Source of the DNA: an uncultured Solirubrobacterales bacterium
GTDB taxonomy: Bacteria; Actinomycetota; Thermoleophilia; Solirubrobacterales; Solirubrobacteraceae
Assembly (NCBI GenBank): GCA_963723675.1
Contig: CAVRRW010000007.1
Location: 134,527-198,526 of the forward strand
DNA length: 64,000 nucleotides
Reading direction: 5' to 3'
A model generated the notes under the pieces. The model saw nothing but the letters and a program-made list of their open reading frames with translations, searched no databases and was not told where the DNA came from. A program made the position numbers and the translations under genes. This document shows, one piece after another, positions 20,460 to 31,986 of the stretch; positions within the stretch are counted from its first letter, which is position 1; each line of letters opens with the position of its first letter.

Positions 20460-21176
20460 ATGCCGGCAGCCGGCATAGTCATGATCATCGCCGTCGTCCT
20501 GATCGTCCTGGCGCTCGTCTACTACCTCGTCTCGACGATCCTCGCGCTCCAGAAGATCACCAAGGGGCTCGACAGGGCGATCGCCGCAGTCGTCGAGATC
20601 ATCCAGAAGACCGAGGCCGTGGCCCCGGTCGTCAACGACATCAACGCCAACCTCGACGCCGGCGTCGACCTGCTCGAGGGCCTGCTCGTCAAGAAGGCGG
20701 GGATGGCCGATGCGCTCGGGCTGGTCGACGGCCTCTACCCGGGGGCTGCCGCGGCGGGCTTTCGCAACTTCCCCGACAGCGCCACGACGAAGGCGCCGCG
20801 CATCTCCGAGGTGTACACGAGGGGAACGCTGACGCTCGCGCGGCTTGGCCGGGAAGCGCCGATCGCGGCCGCCAGCCCCGATGGGCCCGCGTTGCGCAAC
20901 CCGGCCTACGGCAGCCTGGCGGCGAGGTTGCTGTATCCCGAGATCCGCCAGCGGCGGCCCGAGCGCCTGCCCCGCTCACCGGTGATCGGGGCCGGCTCCC
21001 CGGTCCAGTACGAGCCCAGCGAGGAGCCTGGGGTCCGCCGGCGCATGCCCACTGGCACGGAGGATCCTGGGGTCCGCCGGCGCATGCCCACTGGCACCCA
21101 CCCCGCGGACCCGTCCGGGGCCGCTCTCGCCGACCCAGAGGAAACGAGGCCCGATGCAGACACCGGCTCCGTTTGA
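20460..21176 (+). CDS. Single-TM helical protein 5 with extended soluble C-terminal tail (cox-linked)
   Basis: GGAGGAG RBS, ATG 20460; IVMIIAVVLIVLALVYYLVSTILALQKI...EAVAPVVNDINANLD; overlaps the coxM start. Confidence 0.85.
   Translation: MPAAGIVMIIAVVLIVLALVYYLVSTILALQKITKGLDRAIAAVVEIIQKTEAVAPVVNDINANLDAGVDLLEGLLVKKAGMADALGLVDGLYPGAAAAGFRNFPDSATTKAPRISEVYTRGTLTLARLGREAPIAAASPDGPALRNPAYGSLAARLLYPEIRQRRPERLPRSPVIGAGSPVQYEPSEEPGVRRRMPTGTEDPGVRRRMPTGTHPADPSGAALADPEETRPDADTGSV
21021..21098. repeat. In-frame 39-bp duplication (EEPGVRRRMPTGT x2)
   Basis: Copies start at 21021 and 21060. Confidence 0.9.
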
Positions 21177-22029
21177 GTACGAGCGCGCCACAAGCGTCGA
21201 GGGCGCGATCGCGTCGCTGCAGCGGCTCGGCTCCGAGGCGCGAATCATCGCCGGCGGCCACAGCCTGCTGCCGATGATGAAGCTCCGGCTGGCCAACCCC
21301 GAGCACCTGATCGACATCAACGATCTCGACGAGCTGTCCTACATCCGCCAAGACGGCGAGGAGATCCGGATCGGCGCGCTGACCCGCCACGCGGATCTCG
21401 ACAAATCGGAGCTGCTGGCCGAGCACCTGCCGGTGTTCCGCGACGCCGAGCAGATGATCGCCGATCCGCCGGTCCGTAATCGCGGCACGATCGGCGGATC
21501 GCTGTGTCAGGCCGACGCCGCCGAGGACCTCAGCGCCGTGTGCGCGGCGCTCAAGGCCAAGGTCGTGATCCGCGGGCCCGGCGGCGAGCGCGTGCTCGGG
21601 ATGGACGGCTTCTACCTCGGGCCGTTCACCACCGCCGTCGGCGCCGATGAGCTGCTGACCGAGATCCGGATCCCGCTGCGTCCCAACGGCGGCAGCGCCC
21701 ACGAGAAGGTCGAGCGCCGCGCCGGCGACTTCGCGATCGCGGCCGCGTCGGCGGCGGTCTGGATCGAGGGATCGCGGATCGCCGACGCGGGGCTGGCGCT
21801 GAGCGCGGTCGGCCCGATCACGATCCAGGTCTCCCGCGTGGAGGAGCTGCTGCGGGACAAGCCGCCGTCGGAGGAGCTGTTCGCGGCGGCCGGGGAGCTG
21901 GCGGCCGAGGACTGCGCTCCGATCGCCGACGGCCGCGGGACCGTCGCATACAAGCGGCACCTCGCGGCGGTGCTCAGCAAACGTGCGCTGCGCCGGGCAA
22001 CGGCGCGCGCGCTCCACCAGGAGGTGTGA
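21154..22029 (+). CDS. coxM: CO dehydrogenase medium (FAD) subunit
   Basis: IIAGGHSLLPMMKLR, IRIGALTRH, VRNRGTIGGSL, KVERRAGDFA. Confidence 0.93.
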   Translation: MQTPAPFEYERATSVEGAIASLQRLGSEARIIAGGHSLLPMMKLRLANPEHLIDINDLDELSYIRQDGEEIRIGALTRHADLDKSELLAEHLPVFRDAEQMIADPPVRNRGTIGGSLCQADAAEDLSAVCAALKAKVVIRGPGGERVLGMDGFYLGPFTTAVGADELLTEIRIPLRPNGGSAHEKVERRAGDFAIAAASAAVWIEGSRIADAGLALSAVGPITIQVSRVEELLRDKPPSEELFAAAGELAAEDCAPIADGRGTVAYKRHLAAVLSKRALRRATARALHQEV

Positions 22030-22079: not shown

Positions 22080-22559
22080 GTGCAGGTGACGATCACGATC
22101 AACGGCGAACCGGTCTCCCGGGACGTGGAGCCGCGCCAGCTGCTCGTGCACTTCATCCGCGAGACGCCCGGGCTGACCGGCACCCACTGGGGCTGCGACA
22201 CGTCCAACTGCGGCGCCTGCGTGGTGCTGATGGACGGCAAGCCCGTGAAATCCTGCACGATCCTCTCCGCGATGGTCGAGGGCCACGAGGTCCGCACGGT
22301 CGAGTCGCTCGAGGTCGACGGCCGGCTTGATCCGCTGCAGCAGGGCTTCCACGAGAAGCACGCGCTGCACTGCGGCTTCTGCACGCCGGGGATGCTGATG
22401 ACCGCGCGCGCCCTGCTGGACGAGAACCCCGACCCGACCGAGCAGGAGATTCGAACCGCGATCTCGGGCGCGATCTGCCGTTGCACCGGCTACAAAAACA
22501 TCGTCAGCGCGGTTCGCTGGGCGGCCGAGCACCAAGCCGCGACAAAACAGGAGGCGTGA
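22080..22559 (+). CDS. coxS: CO dehydrogenase small (2x[2Fe-2S]) subunit
   Basis: GCDTSNCGAC...KSC; CGFCTPG; ICRCTGY. Confidence 0.95.
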   Translation: MQVTITINGEPVSRDVEPRQLLVHFIRETPGLTGTHWGCDTSNCGACVVLMDGKPVKSCTILSAMVEGHEVRTVESLEVDGRLDPLQQGFHEKHALHCGFCTPGMLMTARALLDENPDPTEQEIRTAISGAICRCTGYKNIVSAVRWAAEHQAATKQEA

Positions 22560-22563
22560 AAGC

Positions 22564-24957
<2,394 letters not shown>

Positions 24958-24975: not shown

Positions 24976-25917
24976 ATGACGCCAGTGCATGTCACCGGGG
25001 AGGCCGCGGACGAGATCCGCCGGCTGGTGCCCGACGTGGAGACGCTGGCCCGGCGGCTGGCATCGGTGGACTACCTCGTCGACGAGGGCCTGGCCACGTC
25101 GATGTTCCTGAGCCTGGCGCTGCCCCAGCCGCTGCTGCTCGAGGGCGAGGCGGGGGTCGGCAAGACCGAGGCGGGCAAGTCGCTTGCGGCGGTGCTGCAG
25201 ACGCCGCTGATCCGCCTGCAGTGCTATGAGGGGATCGACGCGGCCGAGTCGCTGTACGAGTGGAACTACCCGCGCCAGCTGCTCAGCATCAGGCTCGCCG
25301 ACGCCCACGGCGCCGACCTGCGCGAGGAGGACCTGTTCGGCCGCGACTACCTGATCCGCAGGCCGTTGCTGCGGGCGCTGGAGCATCCGGGGCCGCGACC
25401 GGCGGTGCTGCTGATCGACGAGATCGACCGCGCCGACGACGACTTCGAGGCGTTCCTGCTGGAGCTGCTCGCCGAGGCGGCGGTGACGATCCCCGAGCTG
25501 GGCACCGTGCGGGCAACGCATCCTCCAATCATCGTGCTGACCTCCAACCGCACGCGCGACCTGCACGACGCGGTCAAGCGCCGTTGCCTGTACCACTGGA
25601 TCGACTATCCGAGCGCCGAGCGCGAGGTCGAGATCGTGCGCCGCCGGGTCAAGGGCTCGTCGGAGACGCTCGCGGTGCAGGTGGCCGGCGCGGTCGCGAG
25701 GATGCGCGATTCCGACGTGCAGAAGCCTCCGGGCGTGGCGGAGGCGATCGACTGGCTGGCCGCGCTGACCGTGCTCGGCGTGCGGCGACTCGACGAGCGG
25801 GCGATCGCGCGCACGCTCGGGTCCGTGCTCAAGTACTCAGAGGACCAGGAGGTGATCCGGGCCGCCGGTCTGGAAACGCTCGTGGCCGGCGGCGGGGGAG
25901 GGCGAGGAGATGGCTGA
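24976..25917 (+). CDS. coxD: MoxR-type AAA+ ATPase, CODH maturation
   Basis: Walker A GEAGVGKT, RLQCYEG, Walker B LLIDEIDRAD, LTSNRTR. Confidence 0.9.
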   Translation: MTPVHVTGEAADEIRRLVPDVETLARRLASVDYLVDEGLATSMFLSLALPQPLLLEGEAGVGKTEAGKSLAAVLQTPLIRLQCYEGIDAAESLYEWNYPRQLLSIRLADAHGADLREEDLFGRDYLIRRPLLRALEHPGPRPAVLLIDEIDRADDDFEAFLLELLAEAAVTIPELGTVRATHPPIIVLTSNRTRDLHDAVKRRCLYHWIDYPSAEREVEIVRRRVKGSSETLAVQVAGAVARMRDSDVQKPPGVAEAIDWLAALTVLGVRRLDERAIARTLGSVLKYSEDQEVIRAAGLETLVAGGGGGRGDG

Positions 25918-27343
25918 GACGGCCTTCACGGTCGAGACGATCGAGCTCGACCTGCCGGCCGTGGTCGTCGCCTTCAGCCGGCGACTGCACCGCGCCGGTG
26001 TGCCGATGACCGCCGAGCGAGCGGCCCGCTTCGCACAGGCCCTGACGCTGGTCAGGCCGATCACCCGGCGGCGGCTCTACTGGACTGCGCGGGCGGTGGT
26101 GGTCTCCGACGCCTCGCAGGTCGGGGCGTTCGATGCGGTGTTCTTCTCGGTGTTCGGGGCGCGGCCCGGCCGCGACGAGCCCGTCGCCGATGACCCGCAG
26201 CCGGTTGCGCCATCGGCCGATGAGCGGCCCGGATCTGACCGCGAGACAGACGGCGCGGGGGCGGTTCCGCGCGGCACTACCGCGGGATCGGCGGCACCGA
26301 CCCCGAATCGGCGGCCGCAGGATCCCTCGCGCGAGGTGGCGCTGCCGATGGCCGCCAGCGACGAGGAGGTGCTGCGCGAGAAGCGCTTTGACGCGCTCGA
26401 GCCCGACGAGCTGGCCCAGCTCTACCGCGTGATGGCGCGGCTGCGGGTGGCGACACCGCTGCGTCGCACCCGCCGCGTCCGGCGCGACCGCCGCGGCGAG
26501 CGTATCGACATGCGCCGCACGCTGCGCGCGAGCATGCGCACCGGCGGCGATCCGATTCGCCTGGCCCGGCGGCGCCGGCGCGTGGTCCGCCGGCGGCTGG
26601 TGCTGCTCTGTGACATCTCCGGTTCGATGGAGCCCTACGCGCGCGCGTACCTGCAGTTCCTCACCTCTGCCGCCGGCAGCGGCGCCGGCGGGGGGTGGGG
26701 GCGCGGGAGCGGGGTGCGCGGGGGCCGGGTGTCCCGGGGCGGGTCGGAGGCATTCGTGTTCGCCACGCGACTGACCCGCGTGACCCGGCCCCTGGCTTCG
26801 CGAAGTCCGGAGCGGGCGATCCAGCGCGCCGCCGCGGCCGCTCCGGACTGGTGCAGCGGCACCCGGATCGGCGATGCGCTCAAGGCCTTCAACGACCGCC
26901 ACGGACGTCGCGGGATGGCGCGCGGCGCCGTGATCGTGATCCTCTCCGACGGCTGGGAGCGCGGCGCTCCGGCGCTGGTGGGCAGGGAAATGGAGCGCCT
27001 GGCGCGGCTCGCGCACCGGATCGTCTGGGTCAACCCGCGGGTGGCGGCGAGTGGCTTTCAGCCGCGCGCCGGGGGGATGGCGGCGGCGCTGCCGCACTGC
27101 GACGCGCTCGTCAGCGGCCACAACCTGCGTGCGCTCGAGGAGGTCGCAGAGGCGATCGCCGCGCCGCGCGGGGCCGGGGAGGGGCCGGGGATGAGCTGGA
27201 AGAGCGACCCGGTCGAGGCGGAGGCCGAGGAGGAGAGCTGGGCCAGCGCGACACCAGTTCAGGGCAGCTCGGTCGCGATGCCCAGCGGCTACGGCCCAAG
27301 CAGGGGACGCACGATCCCGGGATGGGGGTCTGATGGGCGCTGA
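25910..27343 (+). CDS. coxE: VWA-domain CoxE-like protein
   Basis: IDMRRTLRAS, MIDAS motif LCDISGSME, SGTRIG, ILSDGWERG, WVNP. Confidence 0.9.
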   Translation: MAETAFTVETIELDLPAVVVAFSRRLHRAGVPMTAERAARFAQALTLVRPITRRRLYWTARAVVVSDASQVGAFDAVFFSVFGARPGRDEPVADDPQPVAPSADERPGSDRETDGAGAVPRGTTAGSAAPTPNRRPQDPSREVALPMAASDEEVLREKRFDALEPDELAQLYRVMARLRVATPLRRTRRVRRDRRGERIDMRRTLRASMRTGGDPIRLARRRRRVVRRRLVLLCDISGSMEPYARAYLQFLTSAAGSGAGGGWGRGSGVRGGRVSRGGSEAFVFATRLTRVTRPLASRSPERAIQRAAAAAPDWCSGTRIGDALKAFNDRHGRRGMARGAVIVILSDGWERGAPALVGREMERLARLAHRIVWVNPRVAASGFQPRAGGMAAALPHCDALVSGHNLRALEEVAEAIAAPRGAGEGPGMSWKSDPVEAEAEEESWASATPVQGSSVAMPSGYGPSRGRTIPGWGSDGR

Positions 27344-27551
27344 CCGGGCGACCGGCAAGCGCTGCATCTATCCGGGTTGCGAACGGCCCGCCGTTCCGCC
27401 ACATCCACTTGGCGGCCCGCAGCCGAGCTTCTGCGAGCTGGAGGAGCACAACGCGCTGACCGCCCACCTGGAACGCCGGCGGATCGCGCGCGAGGCGGCG
27501 CCCAACGGCGCCGGGGACCAAACCACCGCCGGGAGGTTCGACGATGGCTGA
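27333..27551 (+). CDS. Small Cys/His putative metal-binding protein
   Basis: 72 aa, CIYPGC...SFCELEEHN; overlaps the coxE stop and the next start. Confidence 0.7.
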   Translation: MGADRATGKRCIYPGCERPAVPPHPLGGPQPSFCELEEHNALTAHLERRRIAREAAPNGAGDQTTAGRFDDG

Positions 27552-27996
27552 GGAGGCATATCGCGCCGTGTTCCTGCGGGTGCACCCGACCGGAAAAATG
27601 GTGCTCAGCCTGACCACCGAGTCCGACGGAATGGAGCCGGAGTACGCGCAGCTGGTCGCGGAGGCGCTGGGGGTCCCGGCGCTCGACGTCAAGGTCGTGT
27701 CGGCCGACGAGAACCGGTTCGGAGTCGGTCACGGGTTCAACACCAGCCCCTCGCAAGCGACGCCGGCGGCGATCACCAGCGCCGCCGGAAAGATCCTCGA
27801 CAAGGCCCGCCTGCTCGCGGGCGCCGCGCTCGACGCCCCGCCCGACAGCCTCGAGTGGAGCAACGGAGCGTTCGTCGGCGCCGATCCAGCGCGGGCCCAG
27901 ACGATCGCGGACATCGCGCTGTACGCGCACGGCAGCGGCGTCCTTCCTGCGGGCGTCGAGGGCGGGCTCGACGCGCAGACCGTCTACCGCGAATGA
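27544..27996 (+). CDS. Stand-alone degenerate molybdopterin-binding subdomain homologous to internal CoxL
   Basis: LRVHPTGKMVLSL...AQLVAEALGVP...EGGLDAQTVY aligns by eye with CoxL LRVHPSGKAVVSL...AQIVAEELGIP...EGGLDAQVIY. Confidence 0.85.
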   Translation: MAEEAYRAVFLRVHPTGKMVLSLTTESDGMEPEYAQLVAEALGVPALDVKVVSADENRFGVGHGFNTSPSQATPAAITSAAGKILDKARLLAGAALDAPPDSLEWSNGAFVGADPARAQTIADIALYAHGSGVLPAGVEGGLDAQTVYRE

Positions 27997-28064
27997 TGCT
28001 CCCCAACGCAGACAAGGCGAGCGCTACCGGGATTCCGAGGCCGGGTCCGGAGATGCACGCGGAG

Positions 28065-28592
28065 TCAAAGCGCGGCGTCGACCTCGACCTGCACCTCGTC
28101 GAGGACCTTGAGCGTCCCGAACAGCGCCGAGTACGGCTTCATGCCCCAGTCGCTCTGCTTGACGGTGGCGGTCCCGGCAAGCCGCCCGTCATCGATGCCC
28201 AGCTCGAACGCGATCGGGTGGCGGGCGCCGGCGAGCTCGAGCTCGCCCCGGACGTTCAGGCGCCTCCCGTCGGAACTGACGTTCACGTCGCTGGACTCGA
28301 ACGCGATCGCGGAGCCCTTGAGCACCTCCTCGTCGATCGTCTGCTCGATCCCCGCCTTGTCATCGTCGCCGAGCACCATCATGCCGCCGATGCCCTCGCG
28401 CACGCGCAGCGAGCGCGCGTCGGCGGTGAGCGAGATCCGGGGCTGTGGGGCGAGCTCGAGCGTCCCCTCCCACGAGCTGACCTCGATCACGAGATCGTGG
28501 GCGGCCTTCGCGGCGGCGCCGCCCTTCTTCGTCCTGACCGTGAGCATGGCGTTGCCGGGGCCGAATGCATGCGTTCCGTCAGCGAGTGGCAT
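28065..28592 (-). CDS. YceI-family (polyisoprenoid-binding) protein
   Basis: HDLVIEV, ISLTADARSL, IAFESS, GELELAG..HPI, TVKQSDWGMKPYSALFG.LKVLDEV pattern; no signal peptide. Confidence 0.8.
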   Translation of the reverse strand: MPLADGTHAFGPGNAMLTVRTKKGGAAAKAAHDLVIEVSSWEGTLELAPQPRISLTADARSLRVREGIGGMMVLGDDDKAGIEQTIDEEVLKGSAIAFESSDVNVSSDGRRLNVRGELELAGARHPIAFELGIDDGRLAGTATVKQSDWGMKPYSALFGTLKVLDEVQVEVDAAL

Positions 28593-28668
28593 CGGGGCAA
28601 CGATGCTAAGCGATCAGGTTTCGACAGGACATTGGACATCGACACAGTGAGCGCAAGGAGACATCCAA

Positions 28669-29097
28669 ATGGTTGAGCTGGACCATCGGTTCTCCACGGG
28701 GAAGCCGATCGAGGAGAACTGGGAGGCGATCCTCGACCTCGAGCGGCTGGTGCCGTGCGTGGAGGGAGGCAGCGTCATCGAGCGAACCGATTCGGAGGCG
28801 GTGAAGGCCGAGATCAAGGTGAAGATGGGGGCGATGTCGATGAAGTTCACGGGCACGGTGGCGGTCGTCGAGCAGGATCCCGGGGCTCATCGGGCCCTGA
28901 TACGCGTCAAGTCCAAGGAGGCCGGTGGCCAGGGTCACGCCAACGCCGATGTGGTGTTCTCCCTGTCGGATGGTGGCGGAACGATCCACACCGCCGCGCA
29001 GATCACCGGTAAGGCGGCGTCGATGGGCGAGGGAGTGGTGGTCAGCGTGCTCGACGCGCTGATCAAGGACTTCACCGAGAAGCTCGCCAACATCTAA
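28669..29097 (+). CDS. coxG: CoxG-family SRPBCC protein, no C-terminal membrane anchor
   Basis: W..ILDLERLVPCVEGG, VKMGAMSMKFTG, GKAASMGEGVV..V...LIKDFTEKL; AAGGAG RBS; the protein ends at 142 aa. Confidence 0.88.
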   Translation: MVELDHRFSTGKPIEENWEAILDLERLVPCVEGGSVIERTDSEAVKAEIKVKMGAMSMKFTGTVAVVEQDPGAHRALIRVKSKEAGGQGHANADVVFSLSDGGGTIHTAAQITGKAASMGEGVVVSVLDALIKDFTEKLANI

Positions 29098-29110: not shown

Positions 29111-29389
29111 ATGGCGCGCAAGACGATGCGACACGTGCGTGAAGGGGAGATCCCGATCGACGGCGGGACTGCTGTCCAGGAGAACCCGGACCGTCCCGTG
29201 TTCAGGGGCAACGGGCCCGACGATCACGTGTGCGTGGAGTGCGGCAACGTGCTCGCGGCGTCGATGCCCCCCGAATACATGAACCGCAAGGTGCGGGTGC
29301 GCTGTGGCCGTTGCAACACGGTCAACGTCGCCGTCGAGGAGCGGGGCGTGGACTACTCCAGGGCGTGGCGGAGAAAGCCGGTCAGCTGA
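29111..29389 (+). CDS. Small zinc-ribbon protein
   Basis: CVECG...CGRCNTVN (two CxxC knuckles); stop overlaps the next ATG. Confidence 0.75.
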   Translation: MARKTMRHVREGEIPIDGGTAVQENPDRPVFRGNGPDDHVCVECGNVLAASMPPEYMNRKVRVRCGRCNTVNVAVEERGVDYSRAWRRKPVS

Positions 29390-30309
29390 TGATCAGAGGA
29401 CAATTGATCAAGCGTGTCCAGCAGTTGGGCGACGAACGCGTGCCGTTCGTGCTCGCGACCGTGGTCCGGGCGCGCCGGCCCACCAGCGTGCGCGCCGGGG
29501 ACAGCGCCGTGGTGCTGGGCGACGGGACGATCGAAGGCTTCGTCGGCGGCGACTGCGCCACGTCGTCGGTGCGCCTGCACTCGCGCAAGGCGCTCGAGAC
29601 CGGGGAACCGGTGCTGCTGCGCCTGGTCCCCGGCGATAGCGAGGACACACACCACGGCGACGCGGTACACGGCACCGTGATCGTCGAGCGCAACCCGTGC
29701 CTGAGCGGCGGCGCGCTCGAGATCTTCCTCGAGCCGCAGCTGCCGGCGCCGCGCATCGTAGTGATCGGTGATGCGCCGATCGCCCGCGCGCTGGCGGAGA
29801 TCGGACGGGCGGCCGGCTACGACGTGGCCGCGTCCGACGCCGAACAAGCGCAACCCGGGCCTGCCGACGCGGCCGTCGTGGTCGCCTCGCACGGGTCGGG
29901 TGAGGAGAGGGTGCTGGGACAAGCGCTCAGCGCCGGTGTCCCGTACGTCGCGCTGGTCGCCAGCAGGGTCCGCGGGGCCGCGGTTCGCGCGGCGCTCGAC
30001 GTGCCCGACGAGCTCCGGCGACAGCTGCACACGCCCGCCGGGATGGACATCGGGGCCCGGACGCCCGCCCAGATCGCAATCGCGATCCTGGCCCAGCTGG
30101 TCGCCGAGCATCATGCGCAGCCGGCGTCTGCAGGGGTGCCTGTGGTCGGCGCAACCGCACCGATGACCGATCCGGTCTGTGGGATGGAGGTGGCGGCCAC
30201 CGATGCGACGCCGCATCTCGATGCCCCCGGCGGCCGGGTGTACTTCTGCTGCTCGGGTTGCCGAGACGCCTACGCCAAGCAGACGACGGGCGATGCCGGC
30301 AGCGGCTAG
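29389..30309 (+). CDS. coxF: XdhC/CoxF-family Mo-cofactor maturation protein with C-terminal YHS/TRASH domain
   Basis: LATVVRARRPTS, EGFVGGDC, CLSGGALEIFLEP, PAGMDIGARTPAQIA; C-terminal DPVCGM...YFCCSGC. Confidence 0.85.
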   Translation: MIRGQLIKRVQQLGDERVPFVLATVVRARRPTSVRAGDSAVVLGDGTIEGFVGGDCATSSVRLHSRKALETGEPVLLRLVPGDSEDTHHGDAVHGTVIVERNPCLSGGALEIFLEPQLPAPRIVVIGDAPIARALAEIGRAAGYDVAASDAEQAQPGPADAAVVVASHGSGEERVLGQALSAGVPYVALVASRVRGAAVRAALDVPDELRRQLHTPAGMDIGARTPAQIAIAILAQLVAEHHAQPASAGVPVVGATAPMTDPVCGMEVAATDATPHLDAPGGRVYFCCSGCRDAYAKQTTGDAGSG

Positions 30310-30907
30310 ACCGACGTCGGCAGGTGGTCGGCCGTTCGTCACGGGCCTCGTGCTCGCCGCCGGCGGCTCCAAGCGACTGGGCCGGCCAAAGCAGCTGCTC
30401 CCCTACGGATCGGGCACCTTGCTGCACCACGTGCTGCAGACCGCGCGGGCGTGCCGATTCGATCAGCTCCTGTGCGTGATCGGCGCGGGCGCCGATGAAG
30501 TCCGCGCCGGCGTCGATCTCAGCGGCCTCGAGGTCGTCGAGAACGGCAGCTTCGGCGAGGGCTGCTCATCGTCGATCGCGGCGGCGCTGAGCGCCGTCGA
30601 CGCGCGGGCGGAGGTGCTGGTGCTGATGCTCGGAGACCAGCCCGGCGTCGAGGCGGAGACGGTTGCGCGGCTGCTCGCGGGGCGGGGGACGGCGCCGCTT
30701 GCGGCCTGCGTCTACGGCGACGGTCGCGGCCATCCGCTCGCTTTCGGGCGCGCTATGTTCGAAGAGCTGGCGAGCCTGCACGGCGACAAGGGCGTGTGGA
30801 AGCTGCTCGACCGGCACCGATCGGAGGTCGCCGACGTGGCGGTGGCTGGACCAATCCCGCGAGACGTGGACACATTGGAGGACTACATGGCGGTACGAGC
30901 CGGATGA
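30293..30907 (+). CDS. mocA: Molybdenum cofactor cytidylyltransferase (MocA-like)
   Basis: LVLAAGGSKRLGRPKQLL, LGDQP, GHP, GDKG, DVDTLEDY. Confidence 0.85.
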   Translation: MPAAARPTSAGGRPFVTGLVLAAGGSKRLGRPKQLLPYGSGTLLHHVLQTARACRFDQLLCVIGAGADEVRAGVDLSGLEVVENGSFGEGCSSSIAAALSAVDARAEVLVLMLGDQPGVEAETVARLLAGRGTAPLAACVYGDGRGHPLAFGRAMFEELASLHGDKGVWKLLDRHRSEVADVAVAGPIPRDVDTLEDYMAVRAG

Positions 30908-31986
30908 ACTCGGTGCTCGACACGATCGAGACGTGGGTGCAGCGCGGGGACAAGGTCGCGGTGGCGACCGTCGTCGACACCAAGAAGTCGGCGCCACAGC
31001 CCGCCGGGACGAAGATGGGCATCAACGAGGTTGGCGAGGTGTGCGGCGCGGTTTCGGGCGGATGCGTCGAGGGCGCGGTCGTCGAGGTCGCTGAGCAGGT
31101 GATCGACGGCGCCCAGCCGCGGCTGCTGCATTACGGGATCGCCGACGAGGACGCCTGGGACGTGGGGCTTCCGTGCGGCGGCGAGATCACGGTCTGGGTG
31201 CAGGGCTACGCCGCGGGCGACCTGCAGGCGCGCTTCACCGAGCTCGCGCAGAGCGGGTTGCGCGCGGCGCTCGTGACCGCGGTCGCGGGCACTGCGCAGC
31301 CGGGCGCGAGGATGCTCGTGCGCGCCGACGGCGAGCCGGAGGGGACGCTCGGCGATCCCGCGCTCGACGGGGCCGCGCTGGCGCTGGCGCGCGAGGCGTT
31401 GTGGTCTGAGGCGACGGAGCTGCACGAGCACGGCGAGGCGAGGCTGTTCATCGACGTCGCGGCGCCGCCCCCGCGGCTGATCATCGTCGGCGCCGTCGAC
31501 TTCGCCGCGCAGCTGTCGGAGGTCGCGCGGCTCGCCGGGTGGCGCCCGTTCGTGATCGATCCGCGCGCCCGGTTTGCGACGCAGGCCCGCTTCCCCGCGG
31601 CCGAGCGCGTGATCGTCGCCTGGCCCGAGGAGGGATTCGCCCACCTCGAGGCGATCGACCCCGCCACCGCGATCGCGGTGCTGACGCACGACCCCAAGCT
31701 CGACGACGCGGCCCTGATCGCCGCGCTGCACTCCGAGGCGAGCTACATCGGCGCGATGGGGAGCCGGCGTGCGCAGGCGCGTCGGCGCGAGCGCCTGCTG
31801 GCCGCCGGGATCGACTCGGCGCTGCTGGACCGGGTGTCGGCGCCGATCGGGCTCGACATCGGGGCGCTCAGCGCCCCGGAGACCGCGCTGTCGATCATGT
31901 CCGAGATCATCGCCCTCAAACACGGCCGCTCGGGCGGCCGGCTGATCGAGTCGCGCGGGCGCATTCACGACGCGGTCGCCGCCTAG
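30904..31986 (+). CDS. xdhC: XdhC/CoxI-family protein
   Basis: KSAPQPAG, GAVSGGCVEG, VGLPCGG, LTHDPKLD, YIGAMGSR, PIGLDIGA..PETA. Confidence 0.88.
   Translation: MNSVLDTIETWVQRGDKVAVATVVDTKKSAPQPAGTKMGINEVGEVCGAVSGGCVEGAVVEVAEQVIDGAQPRLLHYGIADEDAWDVGLPCGGEITVWVQGYAAGDLQARFTELAQSGLRAALVTAVAGTAQPGARMLVRADGEPEGTLGDPALDGAALALAREALWSEATELHEHGEARLFIDVAAPPPRLIIVGAVDFAAQLSEVARLAGWRPFVIDPRARFATQARFPAAERVIVAWPEEGFAHLEAIDPATAIAVLTHDPKLDDAALIAALHSEASYIGAMGSRRAQARRRERLLAAGIDSALLDRVSAPIGLDIGALSAPETALSIMSEIIALKHGRSGGRLIESRGRIHDAVAA

Follow-up and report, generated by a model that had tools for sequence, protein, structure and literature searches.

Thermoleophilia, a class of the Actinomycetota, are abundant in soil; form I CO dehydrogenase (CODH) enables bacteria of this kind to live on trace atmospheric CO. 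The large subunit of this enzyme, CoxL (TIGR02416; structures 8UEM_A and 1N5W_B), has about 800 aa and includes a hammerhead domain, MoCoBD_1, the AYRCSFR loop and a catalytic Glu region. Parts of related subunits can be encoded by genes of their own: the medium subunit of nicotinate dehydrogenase (3HRD_B, 330 aa) is a separately encoded MoCoBD_2, and the split Mo subunits in xanthine-oxidase-family enzymes are catalytic halves that retain the ligands of the cofactor and stand in for the part that is missing from the large subunit. Enzymes of this family are also accompanied by Moco insertion chaperones of the XdhC family, encoded in the same clusters. In another system, NifEN, a full-length paralogue of NifDK, acts as a non-catalytic scaffold that binds cofactor precursors.

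The way in which the buried Mo-S-Cu site of CODH is built is still largely unknown; CoxD, CoxE and CoxF are needed for the insertion of S and Cu into the folded apo-CODH of Oligotropha, and missing factors are explicitly expected (PMC4240915). CoxF, whose gene lies directly 3' of coxE in the coxMSLDE-x-G cluster of Oligotropha (Afipia) carboxidovorans, was proposed to bind CoxE, a VWA protein, at the stage of Cu insertion (PMC4240915).

In this work we analyzed a cox cluster from an uncultured Solirubrobacterales bacterium, located in a stretch of 64,000 nucleotides (below, the window; contig CAVRRW010000007.1). It contains a gene, mini-CoxL (mini; 27544–27996, plus strand), encoding a 150-aa stand-alone copy of the MoCoBD_2 subdomain of CoxL.

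The cox cluster and the mini gene

The genes for the structural subunits, all on the plus strand, are coxM (FAD subunit, 21154–22029) and coxS ([2Fe-2S] subunit, 22080–22559), both assigned with Pfam, and coxL (22564–24957), whose 797-aa product, the parent of mini, scores 1230 bits with the model of form I aerobic CODH large subunits (TIGR02416, cut-off 991). They are followed on the same strand by coxD (24976–25917), encoding a MoxR-type AAA+ ATPase (Pfam AAA_5 and AAA; NCBIfam MadB-like ATPase), coxE (25910–27343; VWA_CoxE, Pfam PF05762, E 1.5e-57), orf72 (27333–27551), which overlaps both the end of coxE and the start of mini and encodes a 72-aa protein with a CIYPGC...FC....H motif, and mini itself. 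The unit coxMSL-coxD-coxE-orf72-mini ends here; the next gene is a YceI-like one on the minus strand, convergent with mini (28065–28592; GC3 0.93, Pfam YceI E 1.6e-8) and part of a conserved Thermoleophilia module. Two plus-strand ORFs (27855–28676 and 27993–28676), considered as a coupled downstream gene, were rejected because their GC3 is wrong and the real gene in this place is YceI. Further on, the plus strand carries coxG (28669–29097; SRPBCC, Pfam COXG), orf92 directed to a small zinc-ribbon-like protein (29111–29389; weak zinc-ribbon Pfam matches), a gene for an XdhC-family protein with a C-terminal YHS domain, CoxF/CoxI-like (29230–30309; Pfam), a mocA-like gene for a Moco cytidylyltransferase (30179–30907; NCBIfam) and a gene for a second XdhC-family maturation factor (30796–31986; NCBIfam).

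The slot after coxE that is occupied by coxF in Oligotropha is thus held here by orf72 and mini. CoxF is a positional analogue of mini with no sequence similarity to it; CoxF is XdhC-like, and the XdhC-YHS protein is encoded separately in the cluster of the window.

The mini ORF begins with ATG at 27544, contains no internal stops and overlaps the stop of orf72 by 8 nt. A Shine-Dalgarno-like GGGAGG (27531–27536, plus strand) lies 7 nt 5' of the ATG, and the GC content by codon position (0.73/0.50/0.89) is like that of real genes of the region (0.67/0.46/0.93 in coxL). The own start, the overlap with the upstream gene and the intact frame, all described in an earlier note on this DNA, were therefore borne out. 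In BLASTP comparison with the product of coxL, residues 11–148 of mini matched CoxL residues 495–636, encoded at 24046–24471 (plus strand), with 42% identity (E 4e-30). The nucleotide range given in the earlier note was exact, but the alignment does not extend over the whole length of mini as had been claimed: its first ten residues (MAEEAYRAVF) do not align with CoxL.

With Pfam PF20256 (MoCoBD_2) mini scored 52.7 bits (gathering cut-off 27; E 5.6e-14), covering only positions 49–183 of the 283 of the profile and hence an incomplete domain; the protein ends directly past EGGLDAQTVY. Its score with TIGR02416, 92.3 bits against the cut-off of 991, is far from that of a full-length equivalog. 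Both the AYXCSFR active-site loop (VAYRCSFR in the neighbouring CoxL) and the catalytic Glu region lie outside CoxL 495–636, so mini lacks them, as it lacks the hammerhead domain and MoCoBD_1. Mini is a real gene derived from CoxL and, judged from its sequence, cannot be a CO dehydrogenase itself.

Changes relative to CoxL

Mini resembles CoxL over residues ~495–640 of the latter, where the two are superposable and have LRVHPxGK, DTD and EGGLDAQ in common; they differ in the two Moco loops, both replaced in mini, and in the new N-terminal strand of mini. The replacements noticed earlier were confirmed by the alignment: TQGQGHET of CoxL corresponds to TESDGMEP, and GTYGSRST to approximately G-HGFNTS(PS).

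Position-by-position comparison of 76 mini and 67 CoxL sequences revealed 40 positions that are conserved and identical in both (LRVHPxGK, LG.P, D..V, DxxD, EGGLDAQ.Y), 27 positions that are conserved in both and yet different, and 15 positions conserved in mini only. The second group includes (mini/CoxL numbering) D28/Q514 in the QGQG loop and H63/Y552 and N66/R555 in the GTYGSRST loop. The fold-forming residues (LRVHPxGK, DTD, EGGLDAQ) are retained in mini. Its 24 N-terminal residues, MAxEAYRAVFLRVHPTGKMVLSLT, are almost invariant, and the strand EAYRAVF is an invariant gain of mini. The Moco-contacting loops of CoxL (QGQGH and the GSRS-type loop), which contact molybdopterin cytosine dinucleotide (MCD) in that protein, are absent and replaced by TExDGxE and FGxGHGxNxxPS. 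Since these are near-invariant, the loops have been rebuilt rather than decayed. Mini is thus presumed to do without Moco binding of the CoxL type. It should be mentioned that a divergent subfamily (G032 type, 48–49% identity) has a more CoxL-like loop, SxxSQGxEA.

Fold and origin

The AlphaFold2 model of mini (69-sequence alignment) has pLDDT 93.3 and pTM 0.88 and consists of a four-stranded sheet, three main helices and a small hairpin. The best Foldseek match was CoxL of M. smegmatis (8UEM_A; TMq 0.83, rmsd 2.3 Å, 44% identity), followed by the CoxL structures of Oligotropha and Hydrogenophaga. At the sequence level the profile of the mini family matches residues 498–640 of 8UEM_A, 511–650 of 1N5W_B and 25–156 of 3HRD_B. 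The model thus predicts a compact stand-alone alpha/beta subdomain of the C-terminal Moco-binding domain of CoxL. It differs from the split Mo subunits in that CoxL is complete here, and mini is an additional half-domain without the ligands.

In the tree of the homologous segments all mini proteins group together (100/99), and the sister of their clade is the neighbouring Thermoleophilia CoxL (90/89); the clade has a long stem (0.47) and is nested in the actinobacterial form I CoxL. This topology indicates a single origin of mini, from a partial copy of the cognate form I coxL made no later than the radiation of those sampled Thermoleophilia lineages that carry it. After the duplication the gene diverged fast, and it has been conserved ever since.

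The earlier note also pointed to a 21-nt stretch identical in mini and coxL. The identity is exact: the 21-mer GAGGGCGGGCTCGACGCGCAG occurs twice in the window, at 24442–24462 and 27958–27978, while no such repeat is expected by chance. It encodes EGGLDAQ, the peptide conserved in both proteins, and the corresponding 21-mers are likewise identical in 12 of 56 relatives. Gene conversion was considered as the cause and rejected, because identity within genomes (19.45 of 21) is about the same as between genomes (18.95) and the mini clade is monophyletic; the segment tree has no sign of concerted evolution of mini and CoxL. The identity is explained by the conserved peptide together with the GC3 and codon bias of the genome, and it lends no support beyond that of the protein similarity.

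Distribution of mini

The earlier note had proposed that homologs of about 150 aa be sought in other cox clusters, and they do exist. Orthologs of 148–153 aa with their own Shine-Dalgarno site and start were found in more than 100 independent Thermoleophilia genomes. Searching 5.8 billion clustered proteins gave 7568 matches, of which the best 120 were all 142–153 aa long, with 95–100% query coverage and 77–93% identity. The short copy is present in 18 of 24 other genomes of the same genus and in 29 of 301 sampled genomes of the class, across seven families; in each of the 29 a coxL segment lies 2.3–5.4 kb away on the same contig. The scan of 185,579 species genomes yielded 80 mini loci, nearly all of them labelled Solirubrobacterales, Gaiellales, Thermoleophilaceae, Miltoncostaeaceae or Thermoleophilia/Actinomycetes. 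One locus labelled Acidobacteriota (L038, JAQBGG010000116.1) contains a complete cluster of the Thermoleophilia type, with CoxL 89% identical to that of the window; the label is probably due to mis-binning.

About 75 of the 80 loci contain an intact mini ORF of 145–153 aa with the common start M-A-x-E-A-Y-R; in the others the copy is frameshifted or truncated, mostly in error-prone long-read assemblies. A Shine-Dalgarno-like tetramer precedes the start in 79 of 81 orthologs. No short copies outside the Thermoleophilia were found in a sample of 401 genomes of the phylum (Actinomycetota), and both mini and orf72 are absent from the coxMSL-xdhC-coxD-coxE-coxG clusters of the other Actinomycetota classes examined. 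Mini therefore appears to be lineage-specific, seen so far only in Thermoleophilia. Among public sequencing runs we found none near-identical to the window, only relatives with a word share of ≤0.05.

Several individual cases deviate from this pattern. One genome of the same genus (G014; locus L025, G014:C67:5457-8783) has a degraded mini with a frameshift and, in a neighbouring piece, one in-frame TAG, which shows that loss of the gene is possible. Two genomes contain two copies: G002 (L124:5844-6266, on contig G002:C213), where the second copy is located ~9 kb upstream of coxM, apart from coxE, and G004 (contigs C11 and C14). Many representatives of the family at 50% identity (P0126, P0130, P0142, P0152, P0243 and others) are internally frameshifted and contain Arg/Pro-rich stretches; they probably come from error-prone long-read assemblies and inflate the apparent diversity of the family. 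Apparent CoxE-orf72-mini fusions (G259, 561 aa; P0149 and P0153) were rejected as stop-free junk frames or products of frameshifted long-read assemblies.

Gene order in relatives

The order coxMSL-(xdhC/mocA)-coxD-coxE-orf72-mini was found in all 80 loci, typically followed by YceI-coxG-orf92. Mini is linked to coxMSL and co-occurs with maturation genes in the 80 loci, and in the 29 class genomes it is linked to a coxL segment. Adjacency to coxE is the most conserved. In three divergent lineages (G032, G188 and G249) coxD has moved and YceI and coxG are located upstream of coxM; mini is still 3' of coxE, amid xdhC, mocA and coxD. YceI adjoins mini in nearly all loci in variable orientation: L040, L077 and L086 have it on the plus strand, G056 lacks it, and in the G032 type it is located elsewhere. 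In G062 mini itself is inverted and co-oriented with YceI.

Two other features of the clusters should be mentioned. Most relatives contain orf92, whose product has a CxxC...CxxC pattern; it is missing from the other Actinomycetota clusters examined. In some relatives (L026, L036, L040–L042, L046, L086, L089, L103 and L123) a second full-length coxL paralogue, 65–74% identical to CoxL, is located directly 3' of orf92, without coxM and coxS of its own and followed by xdhC-mocA-xdhC; the window does not contain it.

Orf72 and the CoxE tail

The product of orf72 matches no Pfam family. Relatives share the near-invariant motif K.CIYPGC.RPA....GGP.P.FC....HNAL.AH.ER and vary in the 20–25 C-terminal residues. 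Of the 301 class genomes 27 contain the gene, each of them one of the 29 holders of mini; none of the genomes without mini has it. This Cys3His protein is a probable partner of mini. A natural in-frame orf72-stop-mini read-through modelled as a single chain with AlphaFold2 (12-row alignment) gave a fold of low confidence (pLDDT 66, pTM 0.56), with values below 50 for orf72. Three genomes of one genus have orf72 upstream of coxM.

The ~40 C-terminal residues of CoxE (27230–27343, plus strand) are conserved among Thermoleophilia (E.EpWaSATPVpGSSVaMPSG.GPsrG.tTPGW). Since tblastn alignments to CoxE of other Actinomycetota end at about residue 405–417 of 477, this tail may be lineage-specific, and it may serve as a docking site for orf72 or mini.

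Selection, rate and expression

Under a maximum likelihood codon model (GY+F3X4+G4) omega was 0.049 for mini and 0.018 for the homologous segment of CoxL; with the Nei-Gojobori method it was 0.16–0.31 for mini and 0.11 for the CoxL segment of the same genomes. Mini is under purifying selection, and a dN/dS near 1, named earlier as the mark of a pseudogene fragment, is not observed by either method. Protein distances among relatives were 0.36 for mini, 0.41 for CoxE, 0.38 for CoxG and 0.10 for CoxL, i.e., mini evolves about 3.6 times faster than CoxL and at the rate of the accessory proteins. Correlations of its rate with those of nine neighbouring proteins were all near zero in the only 18 complete loci available. 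Contigs from relatives in a soil metatranscriptome span mini at a depth similar to that of coxE and coxG, which is weak evidence of expression because DNA carry-over is possible.

Possible functions of mini

Taken together, mini is a conserved, expressed-looking, well-folded and neofunctionalized copy of a CoxL subdomain, genetically tied to coxE and orf72. It probably helps to assemble or control CODH. More specifically, we see about an even chance that it is a non-catalytic accessory protein which works with CoxE, and via CoxE with CoxD, in the assembly of the Mo-S-Cu site. The role of a domain-mimic chaperone or placeholder in CoxD/CoxE-driven maturation, suggested in the earlier note, is consistent with the adjacency to coxE, the accessory-like rate and the CoxL-like fold without ligands. 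Mini would then most likely present a CoxL-like surface, with the re-made loops as a new binding site. It would either serve as an adaptor by which the CoxE/CoxD machine or orf72 docks to apo-CoxL, or stand in for the homologous subdomain of CoxL as a placeholder or decoy. Such finer mechanisms are much less certain, and we regard as somewhat unlikely the most detailed of them, in which mini and orf72 dock to apo-CoxL or replace its subdomain and offer the acidic loops to the CoxE MIDAS, thereby opening or targeting the buried Mo site for the insertion of S and Cu. Since maturation of this enzyme proceeds without mini in other Actinomycetota and in Oligotropha, mini is not universally required.

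Among described accessory factors, the XdhC-family chaperones would be similar to mini in serving xanthine-oxidase-family enzymes from the same clusters; they are unrelated to it in fold and sequence. NifEN may be compared with mini by analogy only, both being duplicates of a structural enzyme kept as helpers, mini in the form of a single subdomain.

Gene position alone cannot separate a role in maturation from a role together with YceI and CoxG in quinone handling. Mini might be a fourth, non-catalytic subunit or regulator of mature CoxMSL, bound for instance at the CoxL surface or at the CoxL-CoxL contact, which we consider unlikely; it would in this case tune stability, oligomeric state or the way in which CoxG and YceI, the soluble quinone carriers encoded beside it, dock to the enzyme. 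Homotypic contacts are plausible for a protein with a CoxL-like fold, CODH heterotrimers dimerize via CoxL, and CoxG docks at the CoxL/CoxM surface (PMC12202499). The gene is always found in the structural operon beside YceI and coxG, and in G062 it is co-oriented with YceI. However, in the three divergent lineages YceI and coxG have parted from mini and lie upstream of coxM, apart from the gene which stays with coxE, xdhC, mocA and coxD, and the protein distance of mini, 3.6-fold that of CoxL, is not what a subunit of the mature enzyme would suggest. Nor do the solved mycobacterial and proteobacterial CODHs contain such a subunit, though those organisms have no mini gene.

The acidic conserved loops of mini might just as well be sites for a small ligand or a metal. 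Its acidic and His-containing loops TExDGxE, DTDR and GHGxN would in this case take up a cargo and hand it over to apo-CoxL, a function that seems improbable to us; the candidate cargoes would be sulfur, Cu/Zn and a precursor or nucleotide fragment of Moco, and the Cys3His protein orf72 may take part. It is true that no part of mini is more strongly re-conserved than the loops that bind MCD in CoxL, that mini co-occurs strictly with the Cys/His-rich orf72 and that scaffolds derived from paralogues exist elsewhere, as in the case of NifEN and NifDK. Against such a carrier, MCD is enclosed in CoxL by several segments, of which mini has just two, both of them changed; mini has no Cys, and the XdhC-YHS, XdhC and MocA proteins of the same cluster already cover the handling of Moco and Cu.

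Finally, that mini is a relic without function, left by a partial duplication of coxL, or a chimera created in assembly, as could be thought of an internal fragment of a neighbouring gene without catalytic and cofactor residues that is degraded in one relative (G014), is practically excluded and already refuted by the conservation and selection data: length, start, Shine-Dalgarno site and position are kept in more than 100 genomes that come from many studies, with contigs of up to 3 Mb, omega is 0.05, the fold is confident and the replaced motifs are near-invariant. The claim of the earlier note that mini is not a decaying duplicate thus holds, given the same-length orthologs, the omega far below 1, the fixed synteny and the conserved replaced loops.

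Novelty and annotation of mini

Neither Pfam nor NCBIfam has a model for the mini family, which gives only partial matches to models of the CoxL type, and a full-text literature search found no description of the protein. What is new is a stand-alone subdomain of a xanthine-oxidase-family Mo subunit with remodelled ligand loops that is kept as an accessory gene, a clean example of one subdomain copied from an enzyme and re-purposed. Together with orf72 it would extend the CoxD/CoxE maturation module in a strictly conserved and lineage-specific manner, and its re-made loops may provide a concrete handle on the recognition of CoxL by the VWA/AAA+ machinery. If mini is indeed an adaptor derived from its client, it would be the first known molybdoenzyme maturation factor with an evolutionary origin in a part of the very protein that is its substrate.

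Databases misname mini as 'CO dehydrogenase large subunit' or label it by its domain only, as 'molybdopterin cofactor-binding domain-containing protein'. By such labels the counts of coxL in annotation-based metagenome surveys could be inflated.
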